A stretch of DNA of 64,000 nt from an uncultured Candidatus Saccharibacteria bacterium (GTDB taxonomy: Bacteria; Patescibacteriota; Minisyncoccia; Phycocordibacterales; 2-02-FULL-43-11): positions 57,631-121,630 of the forward strand of contig CAYGDO010000003.1 of assembly GCA_964348785.1 (NCBI GenBank), given 5' to 3'. The stretch's first letter is position 1. Each line of letters begins with the position of its first letter. The notes under the pieces are model-generated. The model saw nothing but the letters and a program-made list of their open reading frames with translations, ran no database searches and had not been told where the DNA came from. This document shows, one piece after another, positions 14,108 to 61,405 of the stretch. Both the position numbers and the translations under genes were made by a program.

Positions 14108-14659
14108 CTACTTATAACTAGGGGCAGACTCTTTTATACCAGATTTATGACTCGTTAGTCTAGAGAGAGCATAAAGTAGAGATGACATTCGATTTAAAAA
14201 AGCCAGAGTGTTTGGGCTAATTTTTCTCAAACCTTCTTCATTCACATGGACAACCCTCCTTTCAGCTCGCCTTGTCGTAGTCCTTGCGACATCTAAAAAT
14301 GCTCCTAATTTGTTTTCTCCAGAAATAAAAAAAGTTTTTATTGGGGGCAACTCCTTTTCAACAGAATCGATAATGAGCTCCGCTTCTTTTACTCTCTCTT
14401 CAGTAACACTTTTTTCGGCACCAGCCACTTCAGCTTGAACAATAAAAAAACCTTCTTGCGACCAAAACAAAATATCTTCAAATTTTTTTCCGATAATTTC
14501 CAAATTTAATCCTTTAGCTTCAGCGCGCGCCAAACCAATAAAAGAATTGGCCTCATCAAGAGAGCCGAGCGCTTCAGCTATATTTGAACTTTTGCTAACA
14601 CGCTGATCGCAACCAAAAGTTTTTGTTGTTCCACTATCTCCTTTTCGTGTGTAGAGCAT
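14108..14659 (-). CDS. pduO: ATP:cob(I)alamin adenosyltransferase, PduO-type
   Basis: N-terminal MLYTRKGDSGTT, the Cob_adeno_trans signature (YTKTGDKGET-like). Confidence 0.65.
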   Translation of the reverse strand: MLYTRKGDSGTTKTFGCDQRVSKSSNIAEALGSLDEANSFIGLARAEAKGLNLEIIGKKFEDILFWSQEGFFIVQAEVAGAEKSVTEERVKEAELIIDSVEKELPPIKTFFISGENKLGAFLDVARTTTRRAERRVVHVNEEGLRKISPNTLAFLNRMSSLLYALSRLTSHKSGIKESAPSYK

Positions 14660-14687: not shown

Positions 14688-14712
14688 TGTGCGCGGGACA
14701 GGAATCTTGAAA
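14688..14712 (-). repeat. Direct repeat of the last ~15 nt of tRNA-Leu (CCTGTCCCGCGCAC), 260 bp downstream of the tRNA. Att-site-like, or a tRNA 3' fragment.
   Basis: gtgcgcgggacagga occurs at 14689-14705 and 14967-14983. The copy lacks a T-stem and CCA. Confidence 0.6.
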
Positions 14713-14964
14713 CTTACAGTTTCTGTACACCTTTTCTGTTTTATACTCGTGAAGACACTCCATAAAACTATCCAAGGTCTGCAAGTCCTCACTCGAAGAC
14801 TCGTGGCCCGTGCTCGTTCGATGACTCACTGTGGTCAGGAATAATGTTTGAGCCGTCGCTCAAACATTTTCACGACCCTGGCTCAGCTGTTTTTTTTGTT
14901 AAAAAAACATGCCTCCGCCTCGCATCAGTATCGAAAAATCTAAAGCAGTTTAAATTTTTCTATC

Positions 14965-15051
14965 TGGTGCGCGGGACAGGACTTGCACCTGCACGCCCGT
15001 AAGGGCGCTACCACCTCAAGGTAGTGGGTCTGCTAATTCCCCCACCCGCGC
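14965..15051 (-). tRNA. tRNA-Leu (GAG), type II with a long variable arm, CCA encoded
   Basis: Hand-folded: acceptor GCGCGGG/CCCGCGC; 3-bp D-stem with an 11-nt loop; anticodon arm CTACC-TTGAGGT-GGTAG; variable arm CGCCC-TTAC-GGGCG; T-arm GCAGG-TGCAAGT-CCTGT. Confidence 0.75.
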
Positions 15052-15052
15052 A

Positions 15053-15745
15053 TCATCTCACAAAAACCCTGCCTTTGTGCTTGCTTACTATATCTAAACT
15101 TTTCTTTATTTTCAAATATTTTCTTTTTAATCTGACACTACCCTTTTTTTTATACATTAAATGTGCAAGTTTAATTGCTTCATATTTTGAATACTTTAAC
15201 TGGAAACAAACACTTTTTCTTTTTGCATATGTCACATGGCCCTTAATACCTGATAATCTAAAAATTCTTGAGCGGTACCAATCCACATATTTTTTACTGG
15301 CAGAGGCAAAAGTTATATAAAACATAAAACTTGATTTCCAACGAGAATCCCAATATGAGTATGAACAGCCATCACCATCGAAACACCCTCTAACAAAATC
15401 AAAAAAATACTGTTGAGGAATGCCCAATTTGGCCATAGTTTTTGATTTTGCTTTATACAAACCGATACTATTTAAAAAATAGTAAAAAAACACATCACTA
15501 AATTGAACGACAAAATATTTCTTTTCCTCTTCACCCCCTCTCGCCTTTTTGCCTATCCAGCATTTTAACTTCAAAGCCTTCAGAAAATTTTTTATCTGAT
15601 CAAAATCTTTTGAAGTAAAATTTATATGTCTACCATCTGGCGACAAGTTACCATCAGTAGCGATAAGACCGATTGCATAGGCAAAATCCGCTGACCACTT
15701 TATTTTAACTTTTCCTTTTGGTTTTGGACCTCTCTTCCCCACCAT
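15053..15745 (-). CDS. LAGLIDADG-family homing endonuclease (double-motif, single-chain)
   Basis: Two LAGLIDADG motifs: AIGLIATDGNL and FVRGCFDGDGC. The ORF stops 1 nt before the tRNA-Leu 5' end. Confidence 0.8.
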   Translation of the reverse strand: MVGKRGPKPKGKVKIKWSADFAYAIGLIATDGNLSPDGRHINFTSKDFDQIKNFLKALKLKCWIGKKARGGEEEKKYFVVQFSDVFFYYFLNSIGLYKAKSKTMAKLGIPQQYFFDFVRGCFDGDGCSYSYWDSRWKSSFMFYITFASASKKYVDWYRSRIFRLSGIKGHVTYAKRKSVCFQLKYSKYEAIKLAHLMYKKKGSVRLKRKYLKIKKSLDIVSKHKGRVFVR

Positions 15746-15805
15746 TAAATATTAACAAATAATACAAAAAAGCTCAAATAAAAAGCGTATACCAATTAAA
15801 TATAA

Positions 15806-15838
15806 ATTAAAATCCCCTGAAAGACTTCAAGGGATTTT
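15806..15838 (-). terminator. Rho-independent terminator downstream of rplS
   Basis: Hairpin aaatcccctgaa-agac-ttcaagggatttt followed by a T-run on the minus strand. Confidence 0.45.
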
Positions 15839-16253
15839 AATTTGCGACTTCTTCTTTTATTTCTTGTGGGGTCTCTTCAACAACAACTTCCTTTACCGAT
15901 CTTAGATTTCTCATCTGCCTCTTAATTTCCTTGTTTGCTTTTTCTCTAATGTGGTAAAGCTTAGCTCTTCTGACCTTCGAACTTTTAACAATTTCAATCT
16001 TATCAATCATTGGGGAATAAAGAGGAAAGATTCTTTCAACACCAATTCCATCAACCACCTTTCTAACAGTAAAAGTAGCGCCCGGTTCTTTACCGTGCTT
16101 ACAAGCTAAAACCAAACCCTCAAAAGCCTGAAGTCTATATTTATCTTTTTCTTTGATTTTCTGCCAAACCTTAACAGTATCACCGGTTCTAACTCCGATT
16201 TTAGCTCTTTTCTCCAAAGAAATTGGTGAAATTGTTATACCTTTTAAATCCAT
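15837..16253 (-). CDS. rplS: 50S ribosomal protein L19
   Basis: Typical bL19 sequence: [29 protein letters not shown]…. Confidence 0.85.
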
Positions 16254-18026: not shown

Positions 18027-18551
18027 TTAATTAGAATTTCTGCTTATATATTCTAGGACTTTACCCAAATTTACCTCAACACTAATGCCAGAATCGACAA
18101 CTAACCTCTCTTCATTCCACGGAAAATACTCTCTGCGACAATTTTCAACATCAACCCAAGTTACCTCCTGAATTCCATGAATGTTGCGAACACGTGATTC
18201 AATTCTTTTTTTATGTATTATGTGATTTAATACACACTCAATAATAATCAACTCAGCATTATTTTTTTTGGACAAATTACGCCACATCTCTCTCGGCTCT
18301 TTCACTGAATTGACTGCATCAATAATTACGGAAGTGCCAAGTTTTAGATGTTCGGTCGCAAGCATCTCTGAAACAAGATACGCCGCTAAACCAGTTTCAA
18401 AACTTTTCACAATGCCACTTCTTATGATTGATGATTCAATTGGATCGACTGAAAATATTGGCAAACTCATTTTTTTTGCCACAGCCTCAGAAAGGGTACT
18501 TTTACCAGACCCGGGAAGACCCGAAAATATAATTAGACTTAATTTATCCAT
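18027..18551 (-). CDS. P-loop NTPase/kinase (AAA-ATPase-like or zeta-toxin/gluconokinase-like fold)
   Basis: MDKLSLIIFSGLPGSGKSTL Walker A. The ORF-track 5' extension is a read-through across tRNA-Val, so the true start is the Met at 18551. Confidence 0.5.
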   Translation of the reverse strand: MDKLSLIIFSGLPGSGKSTLSEAVAKKMSLPIFSVDPIESSIIRSGIVKSFETGLAAYLVSEMLATEHLKLGTSVIIDAVNSVKEPREMWRNLSKKNNAELIIIECVLNHIIHKKRIESRVRNIHGIQEVTWVDVENCRREYFPWNEERLVVDSGISVEVNLGKVLEYISRNSN

Positions 18552-18559
18552 TTTTTTAA

Positions 18560-18635
18560 TGGTGCGCGATGCAGGACTCGAACCTGCGACCCTCTCAGTG
18601 TAAATGAGATGCTCTACCAACTGAGCTAATCGCGC
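18560..18635 (-). tRNA. tRNA-Val (TAC), CCA encoded
   Basis: Acceptor GCGCGAT/ATCGCGC; D-arm GCTCAGTTGGTAGAGC; anticodon arm TCTCA-TTTACAC-TGAGA; T-arm GCAGG-TTCGAGT-CCTGC. Confidence 0.8.
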
Positions 18636-18869
18636 ATTTTGTGATATTCGGAGGGAATCTCCTTCAGTGTTTCGAGGGAATCTCCCGCGACTAAATTTTT
18701 GCCGTCGCAAAAATTTGTCTGGGCACCATTACATTCGCACTTCTGTGCTCAGTACTTCCTCATTCCCATTCGGTCGCTCGCGAACTCGATAAGGAAAGTC
18801 CTTTCGATTCCCACACGGAGCCAAGCAGTTGGCTCCTCGAGGGAACACTCGTTCGTGTCCTCACTCGTG
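18636..18869. repeat. Structured spacer between tRNA-Val and tRNA-Arg carrying repeated tRNA T-arm-like segments (cgGAGGGAATCtcc twice), one partial copy, and an 8-bp hairpin GGAGCCAA-gcag-TTGGCTCC
   Basis: Seen in sequence. The repeats resemble the T-arm of the neighbouring tRNA-Arg (ctcggagggaatcgaaccc). Confidence 0.4.
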
Positions 18870-23241: not shown

Positions 23242-23285
23242 TATATAAAAAATCCCGCTTAAAAGACGGTGATTTTTTATATACG
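23242..23285 (+). terminator. Long A/T-rich hairpin TATATAAAAAATC…GATTTTTTATATA immediately after tRNA-Ser
   Basis: 13-bp inverted repeat with a 16-nt GC-containing loop. Confidence 0.4.
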
Positions 23286-23384
23286 GAGAGAGAAAAATTG
23301 AAAATTTTTCGGGTGAGATTCAAACGGATTGGCAGTCTACTGGTCGAGCACGACATGTCGACAATCCGACGCCTAGGATTTTTT

Positions 23385-23430
23385 CGAGCGACGGCGAAAA
23401 AAAATTGTAGGAGAAATTCTCGCCCTCCAT
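23385..23430 (+). repeat. Direct repeat R1 (core GAGCGACGGCGAA…TTGT…AGA…TTCTC), paired with R2 at 24519-24565
   Basis: 13-nt perfect core plus ~27 nt of imperfect match. Together R1 and R2 flank the SWIB gene, the membrane gene and tRNA-Arg(GCG). Confidence 0.5.
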
Positions 23431-23503
23431 AAAAATCAAAGTTTGCCTTTAAAAGTATATGTAATATAGTTATAGGGCTATTTAATAAGTAATAAAGAAA
23501 AAT

Positions 23504-24400: not shown

Positions 24401-24518
24401 TTATGTAACGAAGTGAAATAATCACCTCGAAGCGAATGGACTGCTTCATTCGCGTGAGGAATCGAAAGACGGAACTATGTTTTCTGTTTCAGAAAACAAG
24501 CGAGTCGGGGTCGCGACT

Positions 24519-24565
24519 TTTGTGAGCGACGGCGAACAAAAAGTTGTGACAGATTCTTCTCTGAA
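24519..24565 (+). repeat. Direct repeat R2, partner of R1
   Basis: See R1. Confidence 0.5.
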
Positions 24566-24745
24566 GAAATGAACAAAATGAAATAATCACCTCGAGAATA
24601 TCCCTATCCAAACACAACAAATCTCTCCAAAATAAACAAACCTTTTAAAACCCTTAATCAGGTTCTTTTAAAATTGTAAAAAATAATTAGTACCAATTTT
24701 GTAATAACTTTTTATCTCAATCGTCTTGTATTTGCAAAAGAAAAA

Positions 24746-47783: not shown

Positions 47784-48887
47784 TTAACGATTCATAGGCA
47801 TAACAACATACCTAAATGAATGATCGGACACCCCCCTTAAAAGGGCCGGCTTTGCATCACCTGAAAAAGATAAAGAGATGCTGTCTGATTTTATAAAATT
47901 TAGACAATCAATAACATATTTATGATTGAAACTAATCTCCATTTCATCACCAGAAATAGCTGCGTCTAAATTTACACAGCCTTCACCAATTTCATTACTT
48001 TTGGATTTTATAGAAACTACTTTTCCTTGGGGCAAAATGGAAAAAACAGTTTGATTAAACTTATCAGAAAAAGCAACAGAGGCTTTTAATGCTCTCAAAA
48101 GATCTTCCTTTAAAATTATCACCTCTGTTTTAAATTCTTTAGGAATAATTTGTTTATAATCTGGGAAACTTCCATCAACGGTCCTAGAAATTAATACCAC
48201 GCCTCCGACCTCTATCATTATCTGGCCCTTAGAAAATGATGTCTTAATTTCATCATTTTTAAATTCATCAGCAATTTTAGCTATTTCTATTGCATTTTTT
48301 ACTGGTACGATTGTTTGAGAAATTTGTTCTCCCAAATTTAAACGCACACTCTTTTCAGCCAATCTAAAAGAATCCGTAGAGACAAAAAATAAATTCTTTT
48401 CCTGAGAAAATAAAACTACACTGGAAAGTTCTGGTTTTATCTGAGATAGAGAAGCACTGTAACAAACAGACTTTATACCGTCCGATAAAGATGATGCTTC
48501 TATTTTAAAATGTGTCTCACCAATCGGTTTTGACATTTTAGGAAAATCATCAGTATTGAAACCCTTAACAGTGGCCTTACCAGACTTACTTTTTACCACA
48601 AGATTACCCTCTATAAATTCCAAATTAACAGTGCTCTCTTTACCTACCGAACTTAAAAAACCTAAAAGAGCTTCAGCGCTTACGGCCACAATTCCATTTT
48701 TATCCGTTTTGCAATTCAAAGTTACCTCTATAAAAACATCAAGATTAGTAGCTCTAATTAAAAGTTTTCCAGAATCAGCTTCTAAAACAACATTAGACAA
48801 AACAGGTAAAGTTAAATTTTTACTACAAGCTCTATTAGCTAGTGCCACTCCCCAACTTAATTTTTCTTTTGAACATTCAATCTTCAT
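47784..48887 (-). CDS. dnaN: DNA polymerase III beta sliding clamp
   Basis: Three-domain ~367-aa protein with the DnaN N-terminus MKIECSKEKLSWGVALANRA…, immediately downstream of dnaA. Confidence 0.85.
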   Translation of the reverse strand: MKIECSKEKLSWGVALANRACSKNLTLPVLSNVVLEADSGKLLIRATNLDVFIEVTLNCKTDKNGIVAVSAEALLGFLSSVGKESTVNLEFIEGNLVVKSKSGKATVKGFNTDDFPKMSKPIGETHFKIEASSLSDGIKSVCYSASLSQIKPELSSVVLFSQEKNLFFVSTDSFRLAEKSVRLNLGEQISQTIVPVKNAIEIAKIADEFKNDEIKTSFSKGQIMIEVGGVVLISRTVDGSFPDYKQIIPKEFKTEVIILKEDLLRALKASVAFSDKFNQTVFSILPQGKVVSIKSKSNEIGEGCVNLDAAISGDEMEISFNHKYVIDCLNFIKSDSISLSFSGDAKPALLRGVSDHSFRYVVMPMNR

Positions 48888-49097
48888 ATGTATTTATTAT
48901 TTTAATTAAATTTATGATTATGATAATAGTCCTGTGTATATGTTGATAAGTTTTTTAACCTTTATTTATTAACGCTATTTTTTGGAAAATTAAGTTTTTG
49001 CTTTGGGGATTAAATTTTTTATTTGTTAATGATTTTTGTTTTGTGTAAAAGTTATCCCGTTTTTATTATTTTTTTCCACAAGCAATCAACAGGTTTT
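48888..49097. promoter_or_regulatory. AT-rich dnaA-dnaN intergenic region, a candidate oriC/DUE with DnaA-box-like 9-mers (TTTTCCACA at 49072-49080; TTATCCCGT at 49052-49060)
   Basis: Seen in sequence; the boxes differ by 1-2 mismatches from TTATCCACA. A second candidate lies upstream of dnaA at 50457-50556 (TGTTGATAA). Confidence 0.35.
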
Positions 49098-50456
49098 TTA
49101 CAGCATAGCTCTTATTTGGGCGATATCTTGTTCCATTACCTGGTTGTTTTTTACCTGTTCTTTTATTTTTTCATAAGAGTGGATTACTGTGGTGTGATCT
49201 CGTCCTCCCAACTTCTCGCCTATTAGAGGAAACGATACTCCACAGTCTTCTCTTAAAATATACATAGCAATTTGTCTTGGTAACACAACCTCTTTCCTTC
49301 TAGTTTTTTCATAGACCGAAGATTCTTCTATGTTGTAATAGGTGGCTATAGCTTTTACTACTTCTTTTGCTGAAGCGGATTTTTTAGGTTTTATGTTTAG
49401 TTTTAGAAGGTTTTTTATTTCTGATAAATTCAAATCTCTTCCTTTTATTTGCATTTGGCACAAAATTGAATTCAACACCCCTTCTATTTCTCTTATATTG
49501 CCCTCTATTGTGCTCGCCAAGAAGTTTACGTTGTCTTCTGATAGATTACCCCCCAATCGGCCTACTTTAGCCCTTATAATGGCCAAACGAGACTCGTGGT
49601 CTGGTGGTGGAATATCCACAATCATACCAGCGGCGAATCTTGATTTTAGTCTGTCTTCTAGACCGGGGATAAAATTGGGATGCTTGTCAGAGGAAAAAAC
49701 TATTTGTCTCCCTGCGTCGTACAAGGTGTTGAAAAGATGAAACAGCTCTTCCTGGGTTTTTTCTTTACTAGAGAGAAATTGGATGTCATCCATTATGATG
49801 ACATCATATTTTCTGTATTTTTCTTTAAAAGATGAAATTTTATTTGCTTGCACTGCGTTCATGTAGTCTAAATAGAATCTTTCTGATGTAAGGTAGAAAA
49901 CTTTTTTGCCATCTTTCCTGTCTTTGATGCTATTACCTACCGCTTGAATCAGGTGAGTTTTTCCATGACCAGTATTTCCGTATACGAAAAGTGGATTATA
50001 GACCGATCCTAAATTTTTAATTACTGCTTGGGCGGCAGTGTGGGCAAGTTCATTAAATGGACCAACAACAAATGTGTCAAAGATATATCTTGGATTTAAA
50101 TTGCTTTCCTGATCAACATAATGTTCTCCAAGTGGTAAAGATTGATTTATGTTTGCTGATAGAGGTTTTTTTTGCTCAAGAACTTTCTTCTGGTCAATTT
50201 TAGCAATGGTGTAATCTAAACCTCTAATGTGTTCTGAAGCGTTTCTTAGTATTTTTAATATATTTTTATGATATTTATTTGCTATCCAATCCCTCACGAA
50301 CGCGTTTTGAACAGAGATATAAACAATACCGTCGTCAACCTTTGATATCTCGGTGTCTTTAAACCAAGTACTAAAGTTTGCTTTAGAAATTTCTATTTCT
50401 ATTTCAGCGAGAACTTTTTGCCACAAGGATTTATTATCTATTTCTAAAGTTATCAT
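49098..50456 (-). CDS. dnaA: Chromosomal replication initiator DnaA
   Basis: AAA+ Walker A GNTGHGKTHL, Walker B IIMDDIQFL, sensor II, and C-terminal DNA-binding domain IV (…GGRDHTTVIHSYEKI…). Confidence 0.9.
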   Translation of the reverse strand: MITLEIDNKSLWQKVLAEIEIEISKANFSTWFKDTEISKVDDGIVYISVQNAFVRDWIANKYHKNILKILRNASEHIRGLDYTIAKIDQKKVLEQKKPLSANINQSLPLGEHYVDQESNLNPRYIFDTFVVGPFNELAHTAAQAVIKNLGSVYNPLFVYGNTGHGKTHLIQAVGNSIKDRKDGKKVFYLTSERFYLDYMNAVQANKISSFKEKYRKYDVIIMDDIQFLSSKEKTQEELFHLFNTLYDAGRQIVFSSDKHPNFIPGLEDRLKSRFAAGMIVDIPPPDHESRLAIIRAKVGRLGGNLSEDNVNFLASTIEGNIREIEGVLNSILCQMQIKGRDLNLSEIKNLLKLNIKPKKSASAKEVVKAIATYYNIEESSVYEKTRRKEVVLPRQIAMYILREDCGVSFPLIGEKLGGRDHTTVIHSYEKIKEQVKNNQVMEQDIAQIRAML

Positions 50457-52401: not shown

Positions 52402-53652
52402 TTATTCAACAATTTGGAGTGTGTAAAGTTTTAAGTTATTTTTATTCAAAAAAGTTAAAAATTTCTCATTTGAGCTCAAAGACATTTTATAGGCATCAAC
52501 ATCTTCTCCGGCATCGTTACTTAAATTGGTTAAAAATACAGTTTCTCCAGTTGATATATTTGTCTTCCACATCTCATCCTTAAATGATTTAGTTCCTAAA
52601 TACCAATCTTCTGGGTAATCCCCCGTTGGTATGGTTTCTGGTACAGCGCAAAATAGTGTAGTTTTTTCAATTTGAGACCATACACATTTTTCTGGTAAGG
52701 TATTAAATCTAAATGGAAAAGATTGGTTTGTTTCTATGTTTAATATATAGCTATCAAAACTATTTTTATTAGATTCAGAATGCAATACTCGTTTTAGATC
52801 AGAGCTATAAAGAGTGGTTAATCCTTTTTTATCAGATAGGACTAATTTTTCTTCCCCAGTTTTTAAGTTTACAGTTTGTGATAGACCATCAATGTCTTTA
52901 GCCGGTTTAGAAGAAATTATTAAGTAATTTTGTTCTGGCCAATCTATTAACCAATCATTTAGAGGTGAGCTGAAAATTTCTAATTTTTGTTGCAGAGAAA
53001 GATTGCTGGTAATTATAGAGCTTCCAATTTCGCTTTGGTTTATATATGCAATTTGAGAATTGTTTGGAGAAAATATTACGTCCCCTACCGTTGCGTTGAG
53101 AAACTGAGTTTGTAATTCACCATTACCTCCTGTTTTGTCTTTTACACTACCCAAAAAGGTTTGCACTTTTTCTTGGTCTCTTAGGTATTGTCCTACTAGC
53201 TGATCGCCGTTTTTTGTCCAGTAAGCATTATATATTTGAGGTATTGTATTGGTCGTTAACCTTTGAGGCCTTATGTTTTTAGCTTCTGTTTCGTAAGCAT
53301 TACCCTTTGCTCTTTCAATAAATCTAGTGTAATCCTTACCTTCTTTGTTAAATGTGACTCCTCCTGATGTTGGTGTTTCCGAGACTAAACGAAGTTGCGG
53401 TTTAAATGCTCCCCCAGTATTGTTGCCATTATTATTACCATTGTCACCCGCTGTCCCGCCGGTTGTGCCGTTATTGTTGTTATTGTTGCCTTGGTTACCA
53501 TTGTTATTATCAATATCTCCAGAAATTGGCAGATTTGGATCTGTATTTATATTTGTTCCTCTAAAAAACAAAAAATAAGCAAGTACACCAAGTCCGATTA
53601 AGACAAAAATGATGATTATGGGAATTATTTTTTTTAGTTTATCGTTTTGCAT
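52402..53652 (-). CDS. Membrane-anchored extracellular protein with an N/G-rich low-complexity linker and a beta-propeller-like (TolB/WD40-like) body; last gene of the T4SS-like block
   Basis: N-terminal TM helix, then …NNNGNQGNNNNNNGTTGGTAGDNGNNNGNNTGG, then repetitive beta-strand-rich segments. Confidence 0.35.
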   Translation of the reverse strand: MQNDKLKKIIPIIIIFVLIGLGVLAYFLFFRGTNINTDPNLPISGDIDNNNGNQGNNNNNNGTTGGTAGDNGNNNGNNTGGAFKPQLRLVSETPTSGGVTFNKEGKDYTRFIERAKGNAYETEAKNIRPQRLTTNTIPQIYNAYWTKNGDQLVGQYLRDQEKVQTFLGSVKDKTGGNGELQTQFLNATVGDVIFSPNNSQIAYINQSEIGSSIITSNLSLQQKLEIFSSPLNDWLIDWPEQNYLIISSKPAKDIDGLSQTVNLKTGEEKLVLSDKKGLTTLYSSDLKRVLHSESNKNSFDSYILNIETNQSFPFRFNTLPEKCVWSQIEKTTLFCAVPETIPTGDYPEDWYLGTKSFKDEMWKTNISTGETVFLTNLSNDAGEDVDAYKMSLSSNEKFLTFLNKNNLKLYTLQIVE

Positions 53653-53655
53653 TTT

Positions 53656-54840
53656 TTATGGACTACAATGAACTCTGGCTGGGTTAGGTATGTAAGTTAT
53701 TATTGGAGCTTGATACATGCCAGTACCTGGACTGGTCTGATAAGTTGTTGCGGGCACTTGGACACATATGGCCGTTTTTGCTGCATCAGCGGCCGCCCTC
53801 ATTTCCGCCTCTCTATTTCTCACTTGTTCTGCTGGTAAATTTAATCTGTTTATTGTTGCCATTCTGTCTCTATATTCATTTTCTACAGCATCAAGAGCGT
53901 TTTTCACATCGTTGGGGTTTGTTGGGCGTATTCTTCCGTCAGCTACTTGAATTTTAAAATTTTCTGGTTTTTGGGCCATATCTATTTTAAATCCTTCTTT
54001 GCTTGATTCGGCTTGGGCAAGATTTCTTATTTCTGTAGCTTGTCGGTCTAGACTGGCTAAAGCATTTTCAATATTATTTTCTCCTGTTTTGGCTAGTATT
54101 TCTTGCTCTACAGCAGGGAGTCTTTCAAGTGCCGCTCGGATTTCTTCATCAGTCTTTCCGGCGAAGTATGTATCTCTTAGGGTTTGTAGTCTGGTAACTT
54201 CTTCTTCGGTCATTCCGGTTGTACCTTGAGCATTTATTATTCTTTGAATTTCACGCATATCTCTATAACTGTTTGCTTTTTGCTGGAGAGCGTTAGCTTC
54301 GGCGCGCATTTCTCCAGTTGTTTGTCTTAATCTGTCTAAAGCAGCGAGGCTTCTATTTACAGCCCGGTCAAAATCTCTTTGAGCGGTCCTAGACATCATC
54401 ATTAATTCAGTAAGATCGGTACTTTTGAGGGATTCATTGACCACTTTTAAATCAACTAGTTGCGGGTTTATGGTATTTAAAATTATATATGAAGCAAAAA
54501 TAATCAATAATCCGCCAAGCGCCATTTTGATGGTGTGTTTTCCTTCTTCTTTATTTGATATGGCGTCAGTTGAAACATAACTGAATCCACCCATTACAAT
54601 TTGAAGAACAGCTAAAACGGCCGCTGAGGCCACTATTAATTTATAGAGATTATTTATATAAACAGCCAAGTTGTTGCTTCCTGTTTTGGTGATGCATTGC
54701 CCAGTTGCTCCTACTGTGCATGTCCCCGGTAATGGTGCCAACTCTACGTAGTCTAAAGCTAATGTTGTGGTCATAATGCCAAAAAATAAACAAATAGGTA
54801 TTAGTATCAAAATTATTTTTTTGGCTAATGCTTTTTTCAT
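53656..54840 (-). CDS. Secreted/membrane protein whose N-terminus has a VirB2/TrbC-pilin-like hydrophobic hairpin, followed by a long coiled-coil
   Basis: Signal peptide, two hydrophobic helices (LIVASAAVLAVLQIVMGGF and MALGGLLIIFASYIILN), then an ~250-aa heptad-rich region. Confidence 0.3.
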   Translation of the reverse strand: MKKALAKKIILILIPICLFFGIMTTTLALDYVELAPLPGTCTVGATGQCITKTGSNNLAVYINNLYKLIVASAAVLAVLQIVMGGFSYVSTDAISNKEEGKHTIKMALGGLLIIFASYIILNTINPQLVDLKVVNESLKSTDLTELMMMSRTAQRDFDRAVNRSLAALDRLRQTTGEMRAEANALQQKANSYRDMREIQRIINAQGTTGMTEEEVTRLQTLRDTYFAGKTDEEIRAALERLPAVEQEILAKTGENNIENALASLDRQATEIRNLAQAESSKEGFKIDMAQKPENFKIQVADGRIRPTNPNDVKNALDAVENEYRDRMATINRLNLPAEQVRNREAEMRAAADAAKTAICVQVPATTYQTSPGTGMYQAPIITYIPNPARVHCSP

Positions 54841-55847
54841 TATCTTGAAAGGGTGTTAAGTTTTATAAAAATAATTTTTAATGAATTATTTGCTGACTGA
54901 AAATAGTCAAGGTCATTTGAAAGTTGTAACGATAAATTTGCTTGGCCATTTTTACCACTAGTGTTTCTTAAAATTATAGCACTATCAGAATTTTCAATAC
55001 TTTTATCGGATAAGACCCATTTATACTTTAGAGTAGATAAATTTTTGTTATTTACACCAAAAAATACTGGCATAGCTGATATCACGGCCTCTTCTTTATC
55101 AAATGTAAAACTTCCTTCAAGGGCTTTGTTTGTTAATAGACCATATTCTGGATCTTCTTCATAAAACACAACTTTTGATTCTATTGGCTCTATTGAGACC
55201 GTTTTACTAGCGAACGCCCCATTATCCGGGTAGCTAGCTTCTACAGTGATTTCTATAGTTTTTGGAAGGTCGTTGTCTGATTTGTAAGCAATATTGTTTT
55301 TTCCATAACCTGATAAATTATTTAAATATTGATTACCATCTTTCCATTTAAATATTATTTTACTATCCGGCACCTTTTTTCCAGAAGCATCAAGAATGTT
55401 TGGTATCGCAACTAGTTTTAAAGATCCTTGAAAAGGCAATCTTGGTTTACCTTTGTAAAATGGTGGTGTATAGGAATTAGCCTCATAGAGTATGTCCACT
55501 TTTGCTGGAGAAAATATAATTCTTTTTGAAAAAATTTGACCATTTTTTTGTCCAATGACCTCTAAGGTATTTTTTGACCCCAACTTGCCAGATTTGAAAG
55601 AGTATATTCTTAACCCTTTACCACTTTGGACATTTTCTCCGTTTAAAATCCAAGATAATTCAAGTGTATTTATGTCTACTCCGTAAGCGTTTAAAGTGGC
55701 CACGACTTGTTCTTCTGGTCCTGGATTATCAGGTGTTATGGTAAGTTCGACGCCATCTAAGCCAGTAAATTGAGCATTAACTGTATGAGTCAAGAAAAAC
55801 AACAGAAAAAAAATAACATAGGAGATATTGAAAAACTTTCTAAACAT
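54840..55847 (-). CDS. Secreted beta-rich protein (hypothetical)
   Basis: Signal peptide MFRKFFNISYVIFFLLFFLTHTVNA. Confidence 0.35.
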   Translation of the reverse strand: MFRKFFNISYVIFFLLFFLTHTVNAQFTGLDGVELTITPDNPGPEEQVVATLNAYGVDINTLELSWILNGENVQSGKGLRIYSFKSGKLGSKNTLEVIGQKNGQIFSKRIIFSPAKVDILYEANSYTPPFYKGKPRLPFQGSLKLVAIPNILDASGKKVPDSKIIFKWKDGNQYLNNLSGYGKNNIAYKSDNDLPKTIEITVEASYPDNGAFASKTVSIEPIESKVVFYEEDPEYGLLTNKALEGSFTFDKEEAVISAMPVFFGVNNKNLSTLKYKWVLSDKSIENSDSAIILRNTSGKNGQANLSLQLSNDLDYFQSANNSLKIIFIKLNTLSR

Positions 55848-55888
55848 AGATAAATTTTAACATATTTTTTAAAAGTCACTTAGCATAC

Positions 55889-57145
55889 TTATGCTTTTTT
55901 GCTTGCTATTTTTTGTATAGCTTCATTTGCCTTTTCTCCTGCTCCTGGAATTTTAGAGATTACTTTTGATCCATCGGTTATAAGCCATGCATAGGCAATA
56001 TCAAAAGACCAAGCAGGCATTATGCCTAAGGATACGAAATCTACTAAAAATCCAAGAGCTAAGCTAATGGCTAGTTTTCTGTTCATCATCTTATTAAACC
56101 AAAAGAAACTAAATAGTATTAGACCGATTAAGACATCAGCAAGCATATTAACCGCTAGGGCTATTACAGTGACACCAAGAGCATCTTGTACAAAATCAAT
56201 TATTACAGCTCCGGCGCCTAGTAATATCCAGGTCGTAACATTTAATTTTTTCGGTGTTTTATTTTGGGATAAAACCTTTTGAATATTTTTTAGGTTTTGG
56301 CCCAAACTGTTTTTTTGAGTATTTACAGGTGGTTCCCCGTTGGTGTCACCCGATTCATTTTTTTGGTCGCCTGTGGGTTTACCCTCTTCCCCTTTTAGTT
56401 TCGGAGGTAAATTTGAATTTTTAGTATTAGGAGTTTCAGCGGTATCGTAAGATTCACCGTTTTTCCCTTGAACAGTATCGTTTAGTTTCGGAGGCTGATT
56501 GGCCTCGCTGAAACTATTATTTGGTTTTTGTTCGCGATCTCCTTTGCTTTGTGGAGATTCTTCTGTGTCAAACGATTCACCGTTTGGTCCTTGTACGGAA
56601 TCATCTAATTTTGGAGGCTGATTGATTGTGCCGAAACTACTATTTTGTTTTTGTTCTTCATCGAAAGTTTGCTGTGTGTTATTTCGATTTTCTTCTTTAT
56701 TTTCTTTTTGTGTTGAGATACCACCCCCTCCTTTATTTTCATCATTTCCTGTTTCCTCTCTATAAGGATCTTTTTTTTTGTTATTGTTACCATTCGGAGT
56801 TATATATTTTGGAGCTTCTTTTTTTTCGTTACCATTATTCAAATTGTTTTTTTCTTGAGGTTGAAGATTGGAGTCTTGTCCTTTTTTGTCTTGATTTAAT
56901 CCTTTTAGTCTTGTGTTTACTATCTGTTCTGCCAATTGATCGGCTGATAAATTTATGTTTAAACCAGAATAAAAATTCATAGTTTCATCTATGATTCTTG
57001 ACATGTCAGCGTCCCATTTTTTACTGATTTGCTCTAGTTTCGGATTAATTAACTCTGCCCTTTTGGTTACTGATTTTAGTATTTTCTCTTTCATGGCCTG
57101 TTGATTTTTTGCCGGAGAAAGATTTGTTTTTTCTGCCATTTTCAA
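55889..57145 (-). CDS. Protein with a long N/Q/K-rich low-complexity region containing internal ~35-aa repeats and a C-terminal 3-TM membrane anchor (possibly VirB2/VirB3-like)
   Basis: Repeats …NSSFGTINQPPKLDDSVQGPNGESFDTEESP… occur twice. C-terminal TM helices LLGAGAVIIDFV…, VIALAVNMLADVLIGLILF, LAISLALGFLVDFVSLGI. Confidence 0.35.
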   Translation of the reverse strand: MKMAEKTNLSPAKNQQAMKEKILKSVTKRAELINPKLEQISKKWDADMSRIIDETMNFYSGLNINLSADQLAEQIVNTRLKGLNQDKKGQDSNLQPQEKNNLNNGNEKKEAPKYITPNGNNNKKKDPYREETGNDENKGGGGISTQKENKEENRNNTQQTFDEEQKQNSSFGTINQPPKLDDSVQGPNGESFDTEESPQSKGDREQKPNNSFSEANQPPKLNDTVQGKNGESYDTAETPNTKNSNLPPKLKGEEGKPTGDQKNESGDTNGEPPVNTQKNSLGQNLKNIQKVLSQNKTPKKLNVTTWILLGAGAVIIDFVQDALGVTVIALAVNMLADVLIGLILFSFFWFNKMMNRKLAISLALGFLVDFVSLGIMPAWSFDIAYAWLITDGSKVISKIPGAGEKANEAIQKIASKKA

Positions 57146-57431
57146 ATTATAACTCTTATTTGGATAAAATAAGAGTTATAAGATTTTTATTACGACGAGT
57201 GAGCCCGCCTGCCGGCGAGGCAGGGAGCGGGTGGAAAATTCTTACCTGTCTGCGTGTTACGCACGAGCAGATTTTACACAGCGTTCAAGCGAAGTTGTAT
57301 AAAAAGGTTTAATGCCTCCCCTCTTTGGAGCGGGAAAGTGCTAGCTTGTGAGTTTAATATGGGTGTGGCGCTTGCCCTTCGGTCAATGCCCTTTATTTAG
57401 ATAAATTAAGAGTTGAAAAGGCTTCAAAAAT

Positions 57432-59252
57432 TTATAATCCAGAAGATCTAAATTCTTCTTTGGCTTTCTTAATGTTTAATAGTTGTGATGGATCTGAGGT
57501 TATTATTTGATCTTCAGTATAAGAAGCAATAATTTTAATGGCTACGTGTTTTAATCCTACAAAGAATATCCCCTCTCCTACCGATGACTCTAACAAAAGA
57601 TATTTTTCTTCATCTGTTAGATGAAAGATTTCTTGAATTCTATCCATTACTGACGGTGATTGTTTTAGAAGGATTTGCATTGAAGAGTTGGTGATTATGG
57701 GTGTGCCGTAAGGTGATTTCAAGAAATCATCAACGTCCTGAGTAATAGTTGATACCCCTAGATAATATTTTCTCCCTCTTTTAACCATTCTCGTTAAAAA
57801 AGAAGCCGTATCGTCTGATTTCATCATCCACCACGCCTCATCAATGACAAGCAGTCTCTTTTTAAGATTTTTTCTAATGGCAGACCAGATATGGTGGGTA
57901 ATTAAAAAGGTAGCAACAGATTTTAATTCATCCTCCATATCTCTAATAGAAAAGACTATGAATTTACTGTTGATATCAACGTTGGACGGGTTGTTTAGGA
58001 ACCCGCTCCATGTGCCTTTTGTGTATTTACTCAATCTTTCTACCAGAGATTTTGAACCCTCCATACCGCTTAATACTGACTCAAAATCAGATAGTAATGG
58101 TGGCGGAATATTAGTGAAATCATTTTCTGGCGTTATGTCTTTTGAGGAATAGGTTTCGCTTATGGCCTGATCAATTATGGCATCTTCTTCTGGGGTAAGT
58201 CCTCCCAACATTATCCTAAATAGACCAACTAAATTTATAATATGCGATCTTAAAATATCAGAAGGAAGCTCGTCTTCTTTAGGAGGTGGTAAATCAAACG
58301 GATTTATATGGTGTTCTGAATTAAGAGAAATGTTAAAGTATTTTCCTCCTACTGATTCAGCCAATTGAGAGTACTCGTTTTCTGGGTCTATGACCATCAC
58401 ATCAACGTCAAACATCAAAGATCGAAGAATTTCTAATTTGCATGTATATGACTTTCCCGAACCTGATTGGGCGAAAGTTACGGAATTGTAGTTTGGTAGT
58501 GAAAATCTATCAAAGATAACCAAGCTGGCGTTATGTCTATTTATTCCGTATAAAATTCCCTTATTGTCAGTTAAATCGAAAGATACAAAAGGAAAAATAC
58601 TTGAAAGAGGTGCAGAATTTAATTTATTATGAACTAAAAGTTTGTCTTCGCATAAAGGCATAACACTTAAAAACCCTTGTTCTTGTTGGAAAAGAGCCGG
58701 TTTAATAAAAATCATTTTTGCTTCAAGAATGGATTTGACTTCAGACTCAACTTTGTTTATTTCTTCTTCGGTGTCGCCGTAAATTGTTAAATAGAGACCA
58801 ACGTCAAACATTTTTTCTTGAGCTTGCATTAGATTATCTCTAAGGCTTTCTAAATCTTGGTAAGCGGTATCTAACATGGGATCTCTAACGAACCCTTTTT
58901 TCTCTCTTTCGGCAATTTGGCTTTGAACCTGAGCCACTTTTTGTTGAAAGGCCTTTAGGACCTTTGCTGTATCGGTTGGATGGACAAAGATGGCGATATC
59001 AAAGACTTTATCCAAATTTATTATAGGAGAAAACCAGCCCTCGTTTAAAAATCTTGGATATGAGATTACAAAATATGTTCTAGCAATTTTGTCTCCCAAG
59101 TTTAGACTTTTAGGACTTATTTTAAGTGCTGCAGGAGCGATAATATCACTTGTTTTAACAGAATCTGATTGATAAAACTGGCCAGGTATTGTTGCCCCGT
59201 TTTCGTTTGTTTTATCTGTTTTTTTTGATTTTAAAAAGTCAAAAATTCCCAT
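57432..59252 (-). CDS. virB4: VirB4/TrbE/CagE-family conjugal-transfer ATPase, C-terminal ATPase portion
   Basis: Walker A FAQSGSGKSYTCK; Walker B RLLVIDEAWWMM; …GVSTITQDVDDF…QS…, the VirB4 C-terminal signature. Confidence 0.65.
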   Translation of the reverse strand: MGIFDFLKSKKTDKTNENGATIPGQFYQSDSVKTSDIIAPAALKISPKSLNLGDKIARTYFVISYPRFLNEGWFSPIINLDKVFDIAIFVHPTDTAKVLKAFQQKVAQVQSQIAEREKKGFVRDPMLDTAYQDLESLRDNLMQAQEKMFDVGLYLTIYGDTEEEINKVESEVKSILEAKMIFIKPALFQQEQGFLSVMPLCEDKLLVHNKLNSAPLSSIFPFVSFDLTDNKGILYGINRHNASLVIFDRFSLPNYNSVTFAQSGSGKSYTCKLEILRSLMFDVDVMVIDPENEYSQLAESVGGKYFNISLNSEHHINPFDLPPPKEDELPSDILRSHIINLVGLFRIMLGGLTPEEDAIIDQAISETYSSKDITPENDFTNIPPPLLSDFESVLSGMEGSKSLVERLSKYTKGTWSGFLNNPSNVDINSKFIVFSIRDMEDELKSVATFLITHHIWSAIRKNLKKRLLVIDEAWWMMKSDDTASFLTRMVKRGRKYYLGVSTITQDVDDFLKSPYGTPIITNSSMQILLKQSPSVMDRIQEIFHLTDEEKYLLLESSVGEGIFFVGLKHVAIKIIASYTEDQIITSDPSQLLNIKKAKEEFRSSGL

Positions 59253-59253
59253 T

Positions 59254-59916
59254 TTATTTTTGTTCTATTATAGGGCTATGATTTTCCCCAGGGTTAAACA
59301 ATTTATAATAAAATTCCACTAACTCTTCTGTTCCCAGCCTTACTGATCTGATACCACAACGTAATAGTGCTTGTTCGGCTATGGCCACTCTCTGTTCGAG
59401 TTGCACTTTATTTTCTTCAAAAGTCATTTTTTCCTGTTCTTCTTTATTGTTACTTGTTGCTTTTTTTGATCCGCCCTGGATTATATCTGTAAATGACGTT
59501 GAAACACCGTGACTGCCCCCTGAAATTAAAGTTGAGGCGTAAGGTATAACTACAAAAAATCTTTTACTCATTATATTGGAGTTTTGTGTGAACTGTTGTA
59601 TGAAATTAATATATTCTTTTGTTTGGATTTTTAGAAGGTCGTTTAACTGTTCTTTGTACCTTTGTTCAAGTTGGGCTATATATGGCTTTATATCCATTCT
59701 TCTTGATTCAATAAATATTTCTACTGAAAAATCTAAAACATTCAAAAAATTTTGAAACTGGAGTATGGTGGCTTGTTGTATATCTGCTGATTGTAAATCA
59801 AAATTGATAGATGAAGCCATCAAAATTACTCTAAGTGAATTATCTTTGAGAATTAATGTCCCATCTCTTATTTCTTTTATTGGTAAAAAATCTTGTGTTG
59901 CTTTTCCTGAAGACAT
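59254..59916 (-). CDS. VirB4 N-terminal domain encoded as a separate ORF (split gene or frameshift)
   Basis: …FLPIKEIRDGTLILKDNSLRVILMASSINFDLQSADIQQATILQFQNFLNVLDFSVEIFIESRRMD…, the pattern of the TrbE/VirB4 N-terminal domain. It ends 1 nt before the ATPase ORF start. Confidence 0.5.
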   Translation of the reverse strand: MSSGKATQDFLPIKEIRDGTLILKDNSLRVILMASSINFDLQSADIQQATILQFQNFLNVLDFSVEIFIESRRMDIKPYIAQLEQRYKEQLNDLLKIQTKEYINFIQQFTQNSNIMSKRFFVVIPYASTLISGGSHGVSTSFTDIIQGGSKKATSNNKEEQEKMTFEENKVQLEQRVAIAEQALLRCGIRSVRLGTEELVEFYYKLFNPGENHSPIIEQK

Positions 59917-60024
59917 ATTTAAAAGGTGTTTATGTCTTATATTATAACCTAAAACAGTTTTAATAGATTATTTAATTGGTAATTTTGTGGAAAATTAGCA
60001 ATTAAATAAAAACAAGGATTTTTC

Positions 60025-60432: not shown

Positions 60433-60433
60433 T

Positions 60434-61396: not shown

Positions 61397-61405
61397 TGTT
61401 TTATT

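Follow-up and report, generated by a model that had tools for sequence, protein, structure and literature searches.

The window analysed here, by which we mean the whole 64 kb stretch of DNA examined, carries dnaA/dnaN together with repair, cell-wall and type IV secretion genes among its ORFs, as identified with Pfam. All parts of the tRNA-Leu(GAG) locus within it lie on the minus strand. The locus is anchored upstream by rplS, the gene for ribosomal protein L19 (15837-16253; Pfam Ribosomal_L19, E 2e-33), which is syntenic in nearly all related loci and has at its 3' side a terminator-like hairpin consisting of an 18-pair stem and then a T-rich tail (15804-15843). The downstream anchor is a cob(I)alamin adenosyltransferase gene (14108-14659; Pfam Cob_adeno_trans, E 1e-42). 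Between the two are a free-standing double-motif LAGLIDADG gene encoding 230 aa (15053-15745), the tRNA-Leu(GAG) gene (14965-15051), and a spacer that is made up of two intact small elements, E2 (14966-14831) and E1' (14830-14689).

The tRNA-Leu(GAG) gene is contiguous and complete, uninterrupted by an intron, and the full cloverleaf found by ARAGORN, together with its 96-98% identity to the copies in the related loci L284 and L287, bears out the initial annotation, which called it apparently intact. Because its T loop has the unusual sequence UGCAAGU and its D loop lacks GG, it is missed by the Rfam tRNA model RF00005. A promoter-like TTGAAA-17-TATAGT (15087-15115) precedes the tRNA inside the 3' end of the endonuclease ORF, in the codons LKI...DIV. 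Identical hexamers lie 5' of tRNA-Leu in the endonuclease-free relative L284, and 44 of 83 loci have the pattern TTGAAA-N16-18-TANNNT at a distance of 9-51 nt before tRNA-Leu; we infer from these patterns that it is probably the promoter of tRNA-Leu.

The LAGLIDADG ORF ends, as had been annotated, one base before the tRNA (15745-15053 versus 15051-14965), with its stop codon at 15055-15053. Its two motifs read AIGLIATDG and FVRGCFDGDG, and all 67 homologues compared, like all 32 in another set, keep the aspartates D31 and D125. The window protein falls just below the 22.5-bit cut-off of Pfam LAGLIDADG_3 (20.8 bits, E 4.8e-4), PF14528 is present in most of the homologues, and the solved structure closest to the family profile is PDB 2DCH (E 7e-6), deposited as a putative homing endonuclease. 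The gene is intergenic and its ORF is unfused to any host protein, which fits the free-standing class. LAGLIDADG genes are found in rRNA insertions of CPR bacteria (PMC11270868). The present gene resembles these and other free-standing examples in its double motif, its intact catalytic aspartates, its presence or absence at one conserved intergenic site and its wide occurrence in Patescibacteria; unlike those of the rRNA insertions, it lies outside any intron, intein or rRNA, and the 3' end of its ORF overlaps the promoter-like hexamers of a tRNA. The literature searched yielded no description of a tRNA-adjacent LAGLIDADG gene.

A LAGLIDADG gene sits beside tRNA-Leu, at this same site between rplS and tRNA-Leu(GAG), in 78 of 79 surveyed species-level loci, most of which have no spacer. 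This synteny suggested a conserved, domesticated host gene, a reading that was dropped in view of the L19-anchored relatives, all six of which (from five source genomes) lack the gene; in endonuclease-free relatives where tRNA-Leu directly follows rplS, the two are 46-110 nt apart. The absence from all six argues that the gene is a separate insertion, and the pairwise identity of the endonucleases barely tracks that of L19 (r = 0.14, in a biased sample). Judged from its sequence and genomic placement, it is a free-standing homing-endonuclease gene that is probably mobile in its own right and unrelated to the elements on the other side of the tRNA. The site thus occupied, between a tRNA and its upstream gene, is a natural system for a settled free-standing homing endonuclease, with occupied and empty rplS-tRNA-Leu sites available in relatives 70-83% identical in L19. 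One D-stem pair of the tRNA differs between the occupied locus of the window and the empty loci of L284 and L287 (G11/C25 against C11/G25).

On the other side of the tRNA, the direct repeat of the tRNA 3' end that the initial annotation placed about 260 bp downstream is exact over 15 nt (14703-14689). The sequence GTGCGCGGGACAGGA has two exact occurrences in the 64 kb, at 14689-14703 and 14967-14981, separated by 263 nt, where none is expected from 100 shuffles with up to two mismatches permitted. Read on the tRNA strand it is UCCUGUCCCGCGCAC, and comprises the last T-loop base, the 3' strands of the T stem and the acceptor stem, A73 and C74. The first copy, X(1) (14967-14981), is the 15 nt of tRNA-Leu itself from U60 to C74, and the second, X(2) (14689-14703), is a sense copy of the tRNA end at the 3' terminus of E1'. 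The spacer has a G+C content of 0.44-0.50, compared with about 0.33 in its surroundings, and folds far better than its shuffles (z = -6.6).

E2 is a 136 nt element of what we call type II, CAGAUAG...CCUGACCAC (14831-14966), and scores 36.3 bits (E 7e-8) with the covariance model, R1, of the family described below. It is inserted directly after C74 of tRNA-Leu, so that the CA with which it begins completes an encoded CCA, and we propose ...CCCGCGCAC followed immediately by AG as a candidate target junction. Its fold has three hairpins (z = -7.3), among them the hairpin noted earlier, which is real and longer than the 8 bp first assigned to it: it forms the apex of helix P4, GUUUGAGC-GACG-GCUCAAAC (14843-14868), with 11 nt arms at 14843-14853 and 14858-14868. 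The P4 apex GCGACGGC is a conserved motif across the element family.

E1' (14689-14830) is a type I element with a variant core, type B, and carries the repeat at its end. As R1 scores it poorly (4.2 bits), its membership rests on two other features, a 51 nt 5' module that is 96% identical to that of element E1 in L284 and L287, and an alignment with the type B copies of L041, L044 and L012. Its closing stem is formed by 14815-14807 and the repeat. The segment concerned, X'a (GAGCACGGG, 14807-14815), is an imperfect complement of the acceptor 3' strand; when the window and L287 copies are folded to minimum energy, its partner in each is CCCGCGC of the repeat. The last 10 nt of a second segment, X'b (GUGAGGACUUGCA, 14780-14792), are the exact reverse complement of the unusual tRNA-Leu T loop and the start of the T-stem 3' strand, and the equivalent segment in other copies fits each copy's own tRNA.

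Several known identities for the spacer were considered and rejected. For introns, riboswitches and all other curated RNAs, Rfam 15 at permissive thresholds gave only chance matches in the window region and five other loci; with limits of E <= 10 for the window region and E <= 1 for the five other loci, the intron models, group I and II included, gave none, and the suggestion of an intron remnant is not upheld. No Rfam family matches the elements, and the literature searched contains no description of them. ARAGORN in its default, intron-permissive and default-lowered (-ps) modes found neither tmRNA nor tRNA in the elements, with spurious calls only at very low threshold. The small ORFs of the spacer have no Pfam match above the curated cut-off, the sole sub-threshold match being to Frigida (E 0.024). 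A phage or plasmid origin was also rejected, since 84 pattern matches from two scans of viral contigs included no model match.

E2 and E1' are members of an apparently undescribed family of elements, small, folded and probably mobile, that lie directly behind tRNA genes in Patescibacteria. At least 45 copies are present behind 13 tRNA species; they are about 110-190 nt in length and contain no ORF, and nearly every match lies 0-45 nt 3' of a tRNA on the same strand or behind another copy. Four of the eight tRNAs of the window carry an element, the other three copies being behind tRNA-Arg(TCT) (18667-18838, minus strand; 49.6 bits, E 2e-11), tRNA-Ser(TGA) (23280-23431, plus strand; 26 bits, E 3e-5), where the antisense and sense segments fit tRNA-Ser, and tRNA-Arg(GCG) (24422-24569, plus strand; 121 bits, this copy itself being in the R1 training set). 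A first alignment of six copies from different genomes and tRNAs had compensation at 32 of 41 predicted pairs. With the covariance model, 80 related loci yielded 24 copies, metagenome contigs 10 and the window four, and close relatives contributed more. When 34 copies were aligned, 92.4% of cells could pair, as against 59.6% after shuffling and 35-45% with slid partners, and double changes were found at all 41 pairs. A multi-helix core is thus kept by compensatory changes, and several of its unpaired nucleotides are strongly conserved along with the structure despite extensive sequence divergence; a conserved G.U pair in the core points to the tRNA strand as the strand that folds. The spacer, which had been taken for a decayed element, therefore holds two complete family members.

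The type I elements are closed by sequences drawn from the tRNA that they follow. Their 5' part is the reverse complement of the 3' 20-odd nt of the host tRNA, often split by a hairpin at, or at most one base from, the acceptor/T-stem junction (in the copies inspected, tRNA position 64/65 or 65/66), and at the 3' side they finish with a sense copy that covers the tRNA from its T loop to C74. These two segments fit whichever tRNA adjoins and pair with each other in minimum-energy folds, so that the element is closed by a replica of the tRNA acceptor/T helix. Exact sense copies of a tRNA end, 14-23 nt long, are present in at least 15 other elements. Type B copies retain a T-arm-like 3' end, and type A copies are without a T loop. 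In type II the repeat is displaced and comprises the last 3 nt of the tRNA plus flank, and the opening 11-14 nt of a type II copy recur at its own 3' end. The direct repeats vary in position and in length, from 14 to 30 nt, the longest being the repeat around E1 of L284 once E2 is removed, and this variation fits no single known cutting rule.

The mirroring of the acceptor and T stems by the closing helix, and the T-arm-like end of type B, would be expected of a degenerate tandem tRNA duplicate, and the terminator-like hairpins that often stand 5' of elements could suggest a module that serves the downstream gene as promoter or terminator. We disfavour both versions and give them very little credence. 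Neither ARAGORN at its default threshold nor Rfam finds a tRNA or tmRNA in the elements, and the 5' strand is no copy of a tRNA 5' strand but a perfect complement of the 3' strand, with A opposite U65 and with an inverted T loop; the same core stands behind unrelated tRNAs and in front of different downstream genes, and a scan for promoters and terminators was blank at the repeat. Plant tRNA-snoRNA dicistrons are released by RNase Z (cited in PMC12045711). Like these dicistrons and the tRNA-like domain of tmRNA, the elements lie directly behind a tRNA and have an acceptor plus T stem helix with a branch at the 7/5 junction, but they differ in having no anticodon arm, no T loop in type A, a helix that is extended through the discriminator base, and no recognition by tRNA or tmRNA finders.

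Comparison with relatives, which had been suggested at the outset as a search for an empty site, is informative. In L003 the cob gene lies 25 nt past tRNA-Leu with no spacer, L287 lacks E2, and the six L19-anchored relatives lack the endonuclease. The order of parts is tRNA-E2-E1'-X in the window, tRNA-E1-X-E2 in L284 and tRNA-E1-X in L287, E2 of L284 lying after X(2) and not X(1). The two E2 copies are 91% identical, as compared with 75-85% for the flanking genes. These three genomes provide the one clear polymorphism examined in detail. New copies land directly after any copy of the tRNA end and so build up tandem arrays, such as those in L029 and L289, each of which ends in a copy of X. The relatives thus do not show a conserved promoter or terminator element without insertion polymorphism, the outcome named as one that would overturn the initial interpretation. 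More broadly, of the 79 orthologous tRNA-Leu loci about 12 have an element, and close relatives differ in which of their tRNAs bear one. Two copies from one genome resemble each other no more than two from different genomes do (mean identity 0.53 versus 0.50), and a recent transposon burst was rejected on these grounds.

The initial annotation read the repeat as the footprint of site-specific integration or of endonuclease-mediated repair. Insertion at the tRNA 3' end stands; a role for the endonuclease does not, as elements follow tRNA-Arg, Ser, Val, His, Thr, Lys, Gly, Glu and Met genes with no LAGLIDADG gene nearby. The endonuclease and the spacer are therefore not one causally linked element, the gene being mostly without a spacer and the elements occurring elsewhere without the gene. 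A remnant of an integrase-borne island or of endonuclease-triggered repair, with attL/attR-like repeats around junk, would account for a direct repeat of the tRNA 3' end that begins in the T loop, and related genomes do have large serine recombinase genes at the 3' ends of tRNA-Leu, His and Val, which indicates that tRNA ends serve as integration sites in this clade. The covariation data largely refute this reading, however, in that compensatory changes preserve the interior fold across at least 34 similarly small copies; elements at other tRNAs have nothing to do with the endonuclease, and the L298 recombinase region has neither an element nor a second tRNA-end copy within 10 kb. We consider such a remnant most improbable. 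The large serine recombinases, which lie at tRNA 3' ends in L295-L297 and L003, were also rejected as the partner enzyme of the elements, the link being unsupported, as they are not accompanied by elements; the L298 region, 21.6 kb with seven tRNAs, contains neither an element nor a further copy of the tRNA end.

The conservation of structure and of several unpaired nucleotides despite sequence divergence, and the greater conservation of the elements than of neighbouring genes, could instead reflect a cis-acting RNA that benefits the host, in which the antisense segment would pair with its own pre-tRNA at the 3' end and control folding, 3' processing, termination or turnover, with the sense copy as an internal competitor. 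The antisense segment is exactly complementary to the tRNA, the unusual T loop included, and is sometimes better kept than the 3' sense copy (window Arg-GCG, L040a and L177), which would be surprising if it served solely to close the helix. In L029, L041, L177 and the window tRNA-Ser the complementarity extends into the genomic flank of the tRNA, forming a perfect palindrome around a terminator-like hairpin. Such a function is difficult to reconcile with the sporadic distribution of the elements, both among tRNA-Leu loci and among the tRNAs of the window, and with the differences between close relatives in which tRNAs carry them; tandem copies, the differing position of E2 between genomes, and the unfavourable energy of opening folded acceptor and T stems also count against it, and on balance we think it unlikely.

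It is also conceivable, if improbable, that the elements are guided by nucleic acid or mobilized through RNA, the core being a scaffold for a trans-acting protein and the tRNA-matching segments its guides, or, in a variant, that the RNA becomes linked to tRNA 3' ends before a DNA copy is made of it. The scaffold is conserved, the target-matching segments keep fixed positions while being re-specified for 13 tRNAs, and closely related cores can stand behind different tRNAs (L079-Val and L051-Leu, for instance, are 74% identical). Junctions fall exactly at the processed tRNA end, after C74; those of E2 read ...GCGCA-CCA-GAUAG although the tRNA genes of relatives have no encoded CCA; and the type II repeat of its own first nucleotides resembles a longer-than-unit copy of a circle. 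On the other hand, a CCA is often encoded where there is no element (at 27 of 79 tRNA-Leu genes), and its presence at the junctions is therefore not diagnostic of an RNA intermediate. No effector gene is found beside any copy or among the Pfam-scanned window ORFs, and no copy in viral contigs. The elements share with the omega RNAs of IS200/IS605 and the bridge RNAs of IS110 a structured scaffold with variable segments that match the DNA beside the insertion, but they have no adjacent TnpB, IscB or DEDD recombinase gene and no match to Rfam omega-RNA families, and their sense and antisense segments pair mutually and span the same target bases on both strands, as those of known bridge and omega RNAs do not. 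TIGR-Tas systems are arrays of short dual-spacer repeat units beside a Nop-domain Tas gene (PMC12045711); compared by that description, they were rejected, as the elements are single units of 110-190 nt with no array of 36 nt units and no Tas gene. A more specific proposal, which we regard as doubtful, is that of a programmable mobile element, an RNA scaffold whose sense and antisense 'address' segments direct a trans-acting enzyme, or RNA joining and copy-back, to a chosen tRNA 3' end, with the address rewritten at each move.

The explanation we favour, with a confidence only a little better than even, is that E2 and E1' are members of a family of structured, non-autonomous elements that target tRNA ends, and that the LAGLIDADG gene is an unrelated insertion. 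The elements would be non-autonomous mobile elements with the tRNA 3' end as attachment site, in which case the repeat would be the duplicated attachment sequence. They may form a structured 3' trailer on the tRNA transcript, which enzymes that process tRNA ends could presumably still cut owing to the tRNA-like closing helix; insertion could then be harmless because the helix keeps the transcript cleavable. The enzyme that moves them would act in trans, and Pfam searches of 32 window ORFs and of the genes beside elements found no integrase/recombinase, transposase or reverse transcriptase. That negative result weighs against the favoured explanation, as do the lack of any sign of a recent burst, the variability of the direct repeats and the better preservation of some antisense segments.

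Integrative elements target the 3' ends of tRNA genes, with an att identity block that runs from the T loop or the anticodon loop to the gene end. The family resembles these in the direct repeat of the tRNA 3' end from the T loop, the intact tRNA, tandem insertion at the regenerated site, and polymorphism, but its members are far smaller (110-190 nt), encode no integrase or other protein, have a covarying RNA-type fold as their interior, carry an antisense copy of the attachment sequence, and produce repeats of varying length and position. MITEs are similarly small and non-coding, with several copies per genome, mutually inverted ends and a presumed trans-acting enzyme; in contrast, the terminal sequences of the present elements follow the adjacent tRNA, there is no fixed-length target duplication, near-identical copies are not numerous (about 50% identity within a genome), and location and orientation behind tRNAs are strict. 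As with integron attC sites and the attP hairpin of CTX phage, structure is conserved over sequence, one strand is the relevant one, a stem reproduces the double-stranded target, and tandem arrays are formed; unlike those single hairpins, the elements are multi-branched and have no integron integrase, dif context or evident R-box core.

The elements also matter for genome annotation, as they give rise to apparent tRNA fragments, provide encoded CCA ends and change the junctions between tRNA and mRNA. If the favoured explanation is correct, Patescibacteria hold a widespread family of structured RNAs or mobile elements that standard annotation has overlooked, and a large share of tRNA 3' flanks, half of those in the window, would be occupied by them. 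The sense and antisense copies of a tRNA end around a scaffold suggest either a new mode of integration-site recognition or a new tRNA-linked RNA, and both options are now testable since the family, its model and polymorphic loci have been defined.

On the minus strand of the window, rplS (16253-15837) and a terminator-like hairpin (15843-15804) are followed by a LAGLIDADG ORF of 230 aa (15745-15053), which ends one base before tRNA-Leu(GAG) (15051-14965); a non-coding spacer of 263 nt separates the tRNA from the repeat UCCUGUCCCGCGCAC (14703-14689), itself 29 nt before the cob(I)alamin adenosyltransferase (cob) gene, which starts at 14659. The initial annotation described a double-motif endonuclease and a duplicated tRNA 3' end. 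The repeat is a 15-mer identical to tRNA-Leu positions 60-74, and occurs only twice in 64 kb, with no occurrence expected by chance. The spacer is higher in G+C than its surroundings and folds far more strongly than shuffled versions (z = -6.6). Given both LAGLIDADG motifs, the unique repeat and the strongly folding spacer, the observation stands. The related locus L003 has its cob gene 25 nt past tRNA-Leu, so the spacer is dispensable.

The endonuclease has more than 2,700 relatives, all in Patescibacteria, mostly 217-235 aa long and 55-66% identical; among solved structures 2DCH comes nearest, an entry deposited as a putative homing endonuclease. When 79 species-level loci were fetched with the endonuclease as query, its gene was found between rplS and tRNA-Leu (anticodon usually GAG) in 78, with the stop codon anywhere from an overlap with tRNA-Leu to about 40 nt ahead of it, and both catalytic aspartates were kept in all 67 full-length copies. 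Such synteny suggested a fixed host gene, which was ruled out by a second survey anchored on L19 instead of the endonuclease. The gene is absent from the window's nearest relatives, L284/285/286 (L19 83%), L287 (L19 identity 82%) and L289 (74%), where rplS and tRNA-Leu are 110, 67 and 80 nt apart, respectively, and from three more relatives with L19 identity of about 70%. The endonuclease gene thus behaves as free-standing homing endonuclease genes do, being polymorphic for insertion at a conserved rplS/tRNA-Leu site, and is an insertion separate from the spacer, with which the initial annotation had joined it in a single element. Pairwise identity of the endonuclease scarcely follows that of L19 (r = 0.14, in a sample picked by similarity to the query), which lends weak support to mobility.

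The final 20 or so codons of the ORF are overlapped by TTGAAA-17-TATAGT (15087-15115), a candidate tRNA-Leu promoter; both hexamers also precede tRNA-Leu in the endonuclease-free L284, and 44 of 83 loci have a motif of this type at 9-51 nt upstream of tRNA-Leu, with TTGAAA as the -35-like hexamer in all 44. In the endonuclease family, the two hexamers fall on the conserved C-terminal LKI...L.IV, which suggests that this stretch may double as coding region and putative tRNA promoter. A weak promoter-like sequence, TTGAGC-17-TAATAT (15749-15777), falls below the scan threshold and ends 3 nt before the endonuclease ATG; if a promoter, it would yield a leaderless or nearly leaderless endonuclease mRNA.

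The tRNA-Leu itself, which goes undetected by the Rfam tRNA model, is one of those with a T loop beginning UGC (G55, not U), found in the window (14965-15051) and in L003, L005, L013, L020, L031, L072, L284 and L287. This T loop goes with a D loop lacking GG in 10 of 11 tRNA-Leu genes, and GG is kept in all 74 genes with a UUC T loop; the G18-psi55 tertiary pair seems to have covaried here (A18 with G55). The D arm (15041/15027) has G11/C25 in the window, where the endonuclease is present, versus C11/G25 in L284 and L287, where it is absent; other endonuclease-bearing genomes have either pair, and the swap might bear on endonuclease target or immunity.

In five more of the 79 loci searched, the 3' end of tRNA-Leu is repeated 150-262 nt downstream, each repeat matching its own tRNA, and the spacers have in common such motifs as GUGAGGACUYGAA, CGGAGC, GCGAG and GCGACGGC. 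Six copies, located behind tRNA-Leu, tRNA-Val and tRNA-Arg, plus one at a locus edge with its tRNA beyond view, aligned well with MAFFT; of the 41 pairs predicted by RNAalifold, 32 show compensatory changes, and a covariance model, R1, was built from the same copies. R1 picked out four window copies, those behind tRNA-Arg(GCG), Arg(TCT), Leu(GAG) and Ser(TGA), 24 in 80 loci, 10 in metagenome contigs and further ones in close relatives, and none in the viral contigs scanned. Nearly all matches follow a tRNA on the same strand, at a distance of 0-45 nt, or come directly after another copy, and 13 tRNA species serve as hosts. Among 34 aligned copies 92.4% of cells pair, versus 59.6% in shuffles and 35-45% with partners displaced by one to three columns, with double changes at 41 of 41 pairs; this alignment was fitted to the model and hence leans towards the structure; the independent six-sequence alignment agrees. 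A G.U pair retained in 18 of the 34 copies and a tandem G.A internal loop point to the tRNA's strand as the one that folds. We are almost certain that a structured, tRNA-linked family exists and that the flagged repeat belongs to it. Rfam 15 has no matching family, and full-text searches of one literature library returned no account of such elements or of a LAGLIDADG gene beside a tRNA; a published study of LAGLIDADG in CPR describes rRNA insertions only (PMC11270868).

Type I elements comprise, in order, an optional terminator-like hairpin or ACGAAGUGA-type leader; X'a, the complement of the acceptor 3' strand, A73 and C74; hairpin P2, with a CUGC loop in many copies; X'b, the complement of the T-stem 3' strand and T loop, with an invariant GAA at its end; helix P3, with a G.A-rich internal loop; helix P4, with GCGACGGC at its apex; and X(2), a sense copy of the tRNA from T loop to C74. 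Both kinds of segment match the adjacent tRNA, whichever its species, the antisense being exact, in most copies, for 10-15 nt of the T arm and 7-22 nt of acceptor plus flank, and the sense copy for 14-23 nt in about half; the unusual T loop UGCAAGU of the window tRNA-Leu is mirrored as ACUUGCA at 14786-14780. Since X(2) pairs with X'a and X'b, and the branch point of P2 is at tRNA position 64/65 or 65/66, the modelled closing helix copies the acceptor/T-stem stack, its 5' strand being a perfect complement (A opposite U65) and no copy of the tRNA's own 5' strand. Two points speak against guide RNAs: sense and antisense cover the same bases, and no effector gene was found beside the copies or among the Pfam-scanned ORFs of the window. 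Complementarity runs into the genomic flank in L029, L041 and L177 and after the window tRNA-Ser, forming a perfect palindrome centred on a terminator-like hairpin, and in some elements the antisense segment outlasts the sense copy; selection on the closing helix alone leaves both features unaccounted for. Type II copies start 0-3 nt past the tRNA, lack X'b, end in GUGAYCAC, and repeat the last 3 nt of the tRNA plus their own first 11 nt or so. CUGC, a common P2 loop, is complementary to the GCAG in CAGCAG, a common P3 loop (e.g. L193, L167, L032 and window 14941-14944), and could form a loop-loop contact, with incomplete co-occurrence.

Comparison with L284 and L287 resolves the window spacer into two elements on the minus strand, E2 (type II, 136 nt, 14966-14831) and E1' (14830-14689), which has a variant (type B) core. 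The 8-bp hairpin reported earlier is present, as the P4 apex of E2; the spacer around it is not decayed, as had been supposed, but consists of two family members. Because E1' is scored poorly by R1, its membership rests on a 51-nt 5' module, 96% identical to its counterpart E1 in L284 and L287, and on alignment of the type B core, common to L041, L044, L012, L289 and L296. The order is tRNA-E2-E1'-X(2) in the window, tRNA-E1-X(2)-E2 in L284, and tRNA-E1-X(2), with no E2, in L287. E2 is preceded by ...CCCGCGCAC and followed by AG in both the window and L284, and the two copies are 91% identical (rplS and cob DNA, 75-85%); this identity, at different positions, indicates that E2 probably came to lie behind either copy of the tRNA end by independent insertion or by moving. 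The first two bases of E2 finish an encoded CCA, and the relatives' tRNA genes have no such CCA. With E2 removed, L284 has a 30-nt direct repeat flanking E1, which starts in the T loop and extends 12 nt beyond the tRNA, and in tandem arrays in L029 and L289 a copy of the tRNA end closes each unit. A 17-nt direct repeat, TGAAATAATCACCTCGA, at 24414-24430 and 24579-24595, brackets the window element behind tRNA-Arg(GCG); the second copy of this repeat resembles the beginning of a truncated tandem unit.

Large serine recombinase genes (Resolvase + Recombinase + Zn_ribbon_recom, 515-547 aa) also lie at tRNA 3' ends in related genomes, namely those of tRNA-Leu(GAG), tRNA-His and tRNA-Val(TAC) (L297 3029-4672, equivalent to L298 10001-11644; L295 4151-5417; L296 1-497; L003 106-912). 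Three overlap the last tRNA bases; in L296 the gene begins about 140 nt past tRNA-Val. More than 1,000 homologues of the family occur in Patescibacteria, and 21.6 kb examined around one gene held neither a small element nor a tRNA-end repeat. Another tRNA 3' end that differs is that of tRNA-Val(TAC): it is followed in the window by an AAA_33/KTI12-like kinase gene (18027-18560), and in the close relatives L284 (1502-1647) and L287 (1570-1711) by a small element. In L077 (2085-4069), tRNA-Leu is followed by a 515-aa ORF with a weak GDSL-lipase match and then by a truncated element whose end, 1.8 kb downstream, is still a near-copy of the tRNA end; the ORF may be cargo captured between the two. 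Elsewhere in the window (47787-50456 and 52405-63997) lie dnaA and dnaN, which probably mark the chromosomal origin region, and a type IV secretion-like cluster (TraG/VirB4-like ATPase, T4SS pilin) with several large ORFs that lack a Pfam match.

Movement by a simple integrase is difficult to reconcile with the varying length and position of the repeat, and would leave the antisense segment with no role, and no recombinase was found beside the elements or among the Pfam-scanned ORFs of the window; a pure host function is at odds with a sporadic distribution that differs between close relatives. We consider it likely that the elements are mobile now or were so recently, and that they attach at the tRNA 3' end. 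Copies within a genome are as diverged as those between genomes, so the elements are old and under structural selection, with no recent burst. Plausibly, they would be trailers co-transcribed with the tRNA, whose tRNA-like closing helix would keep processing intact.
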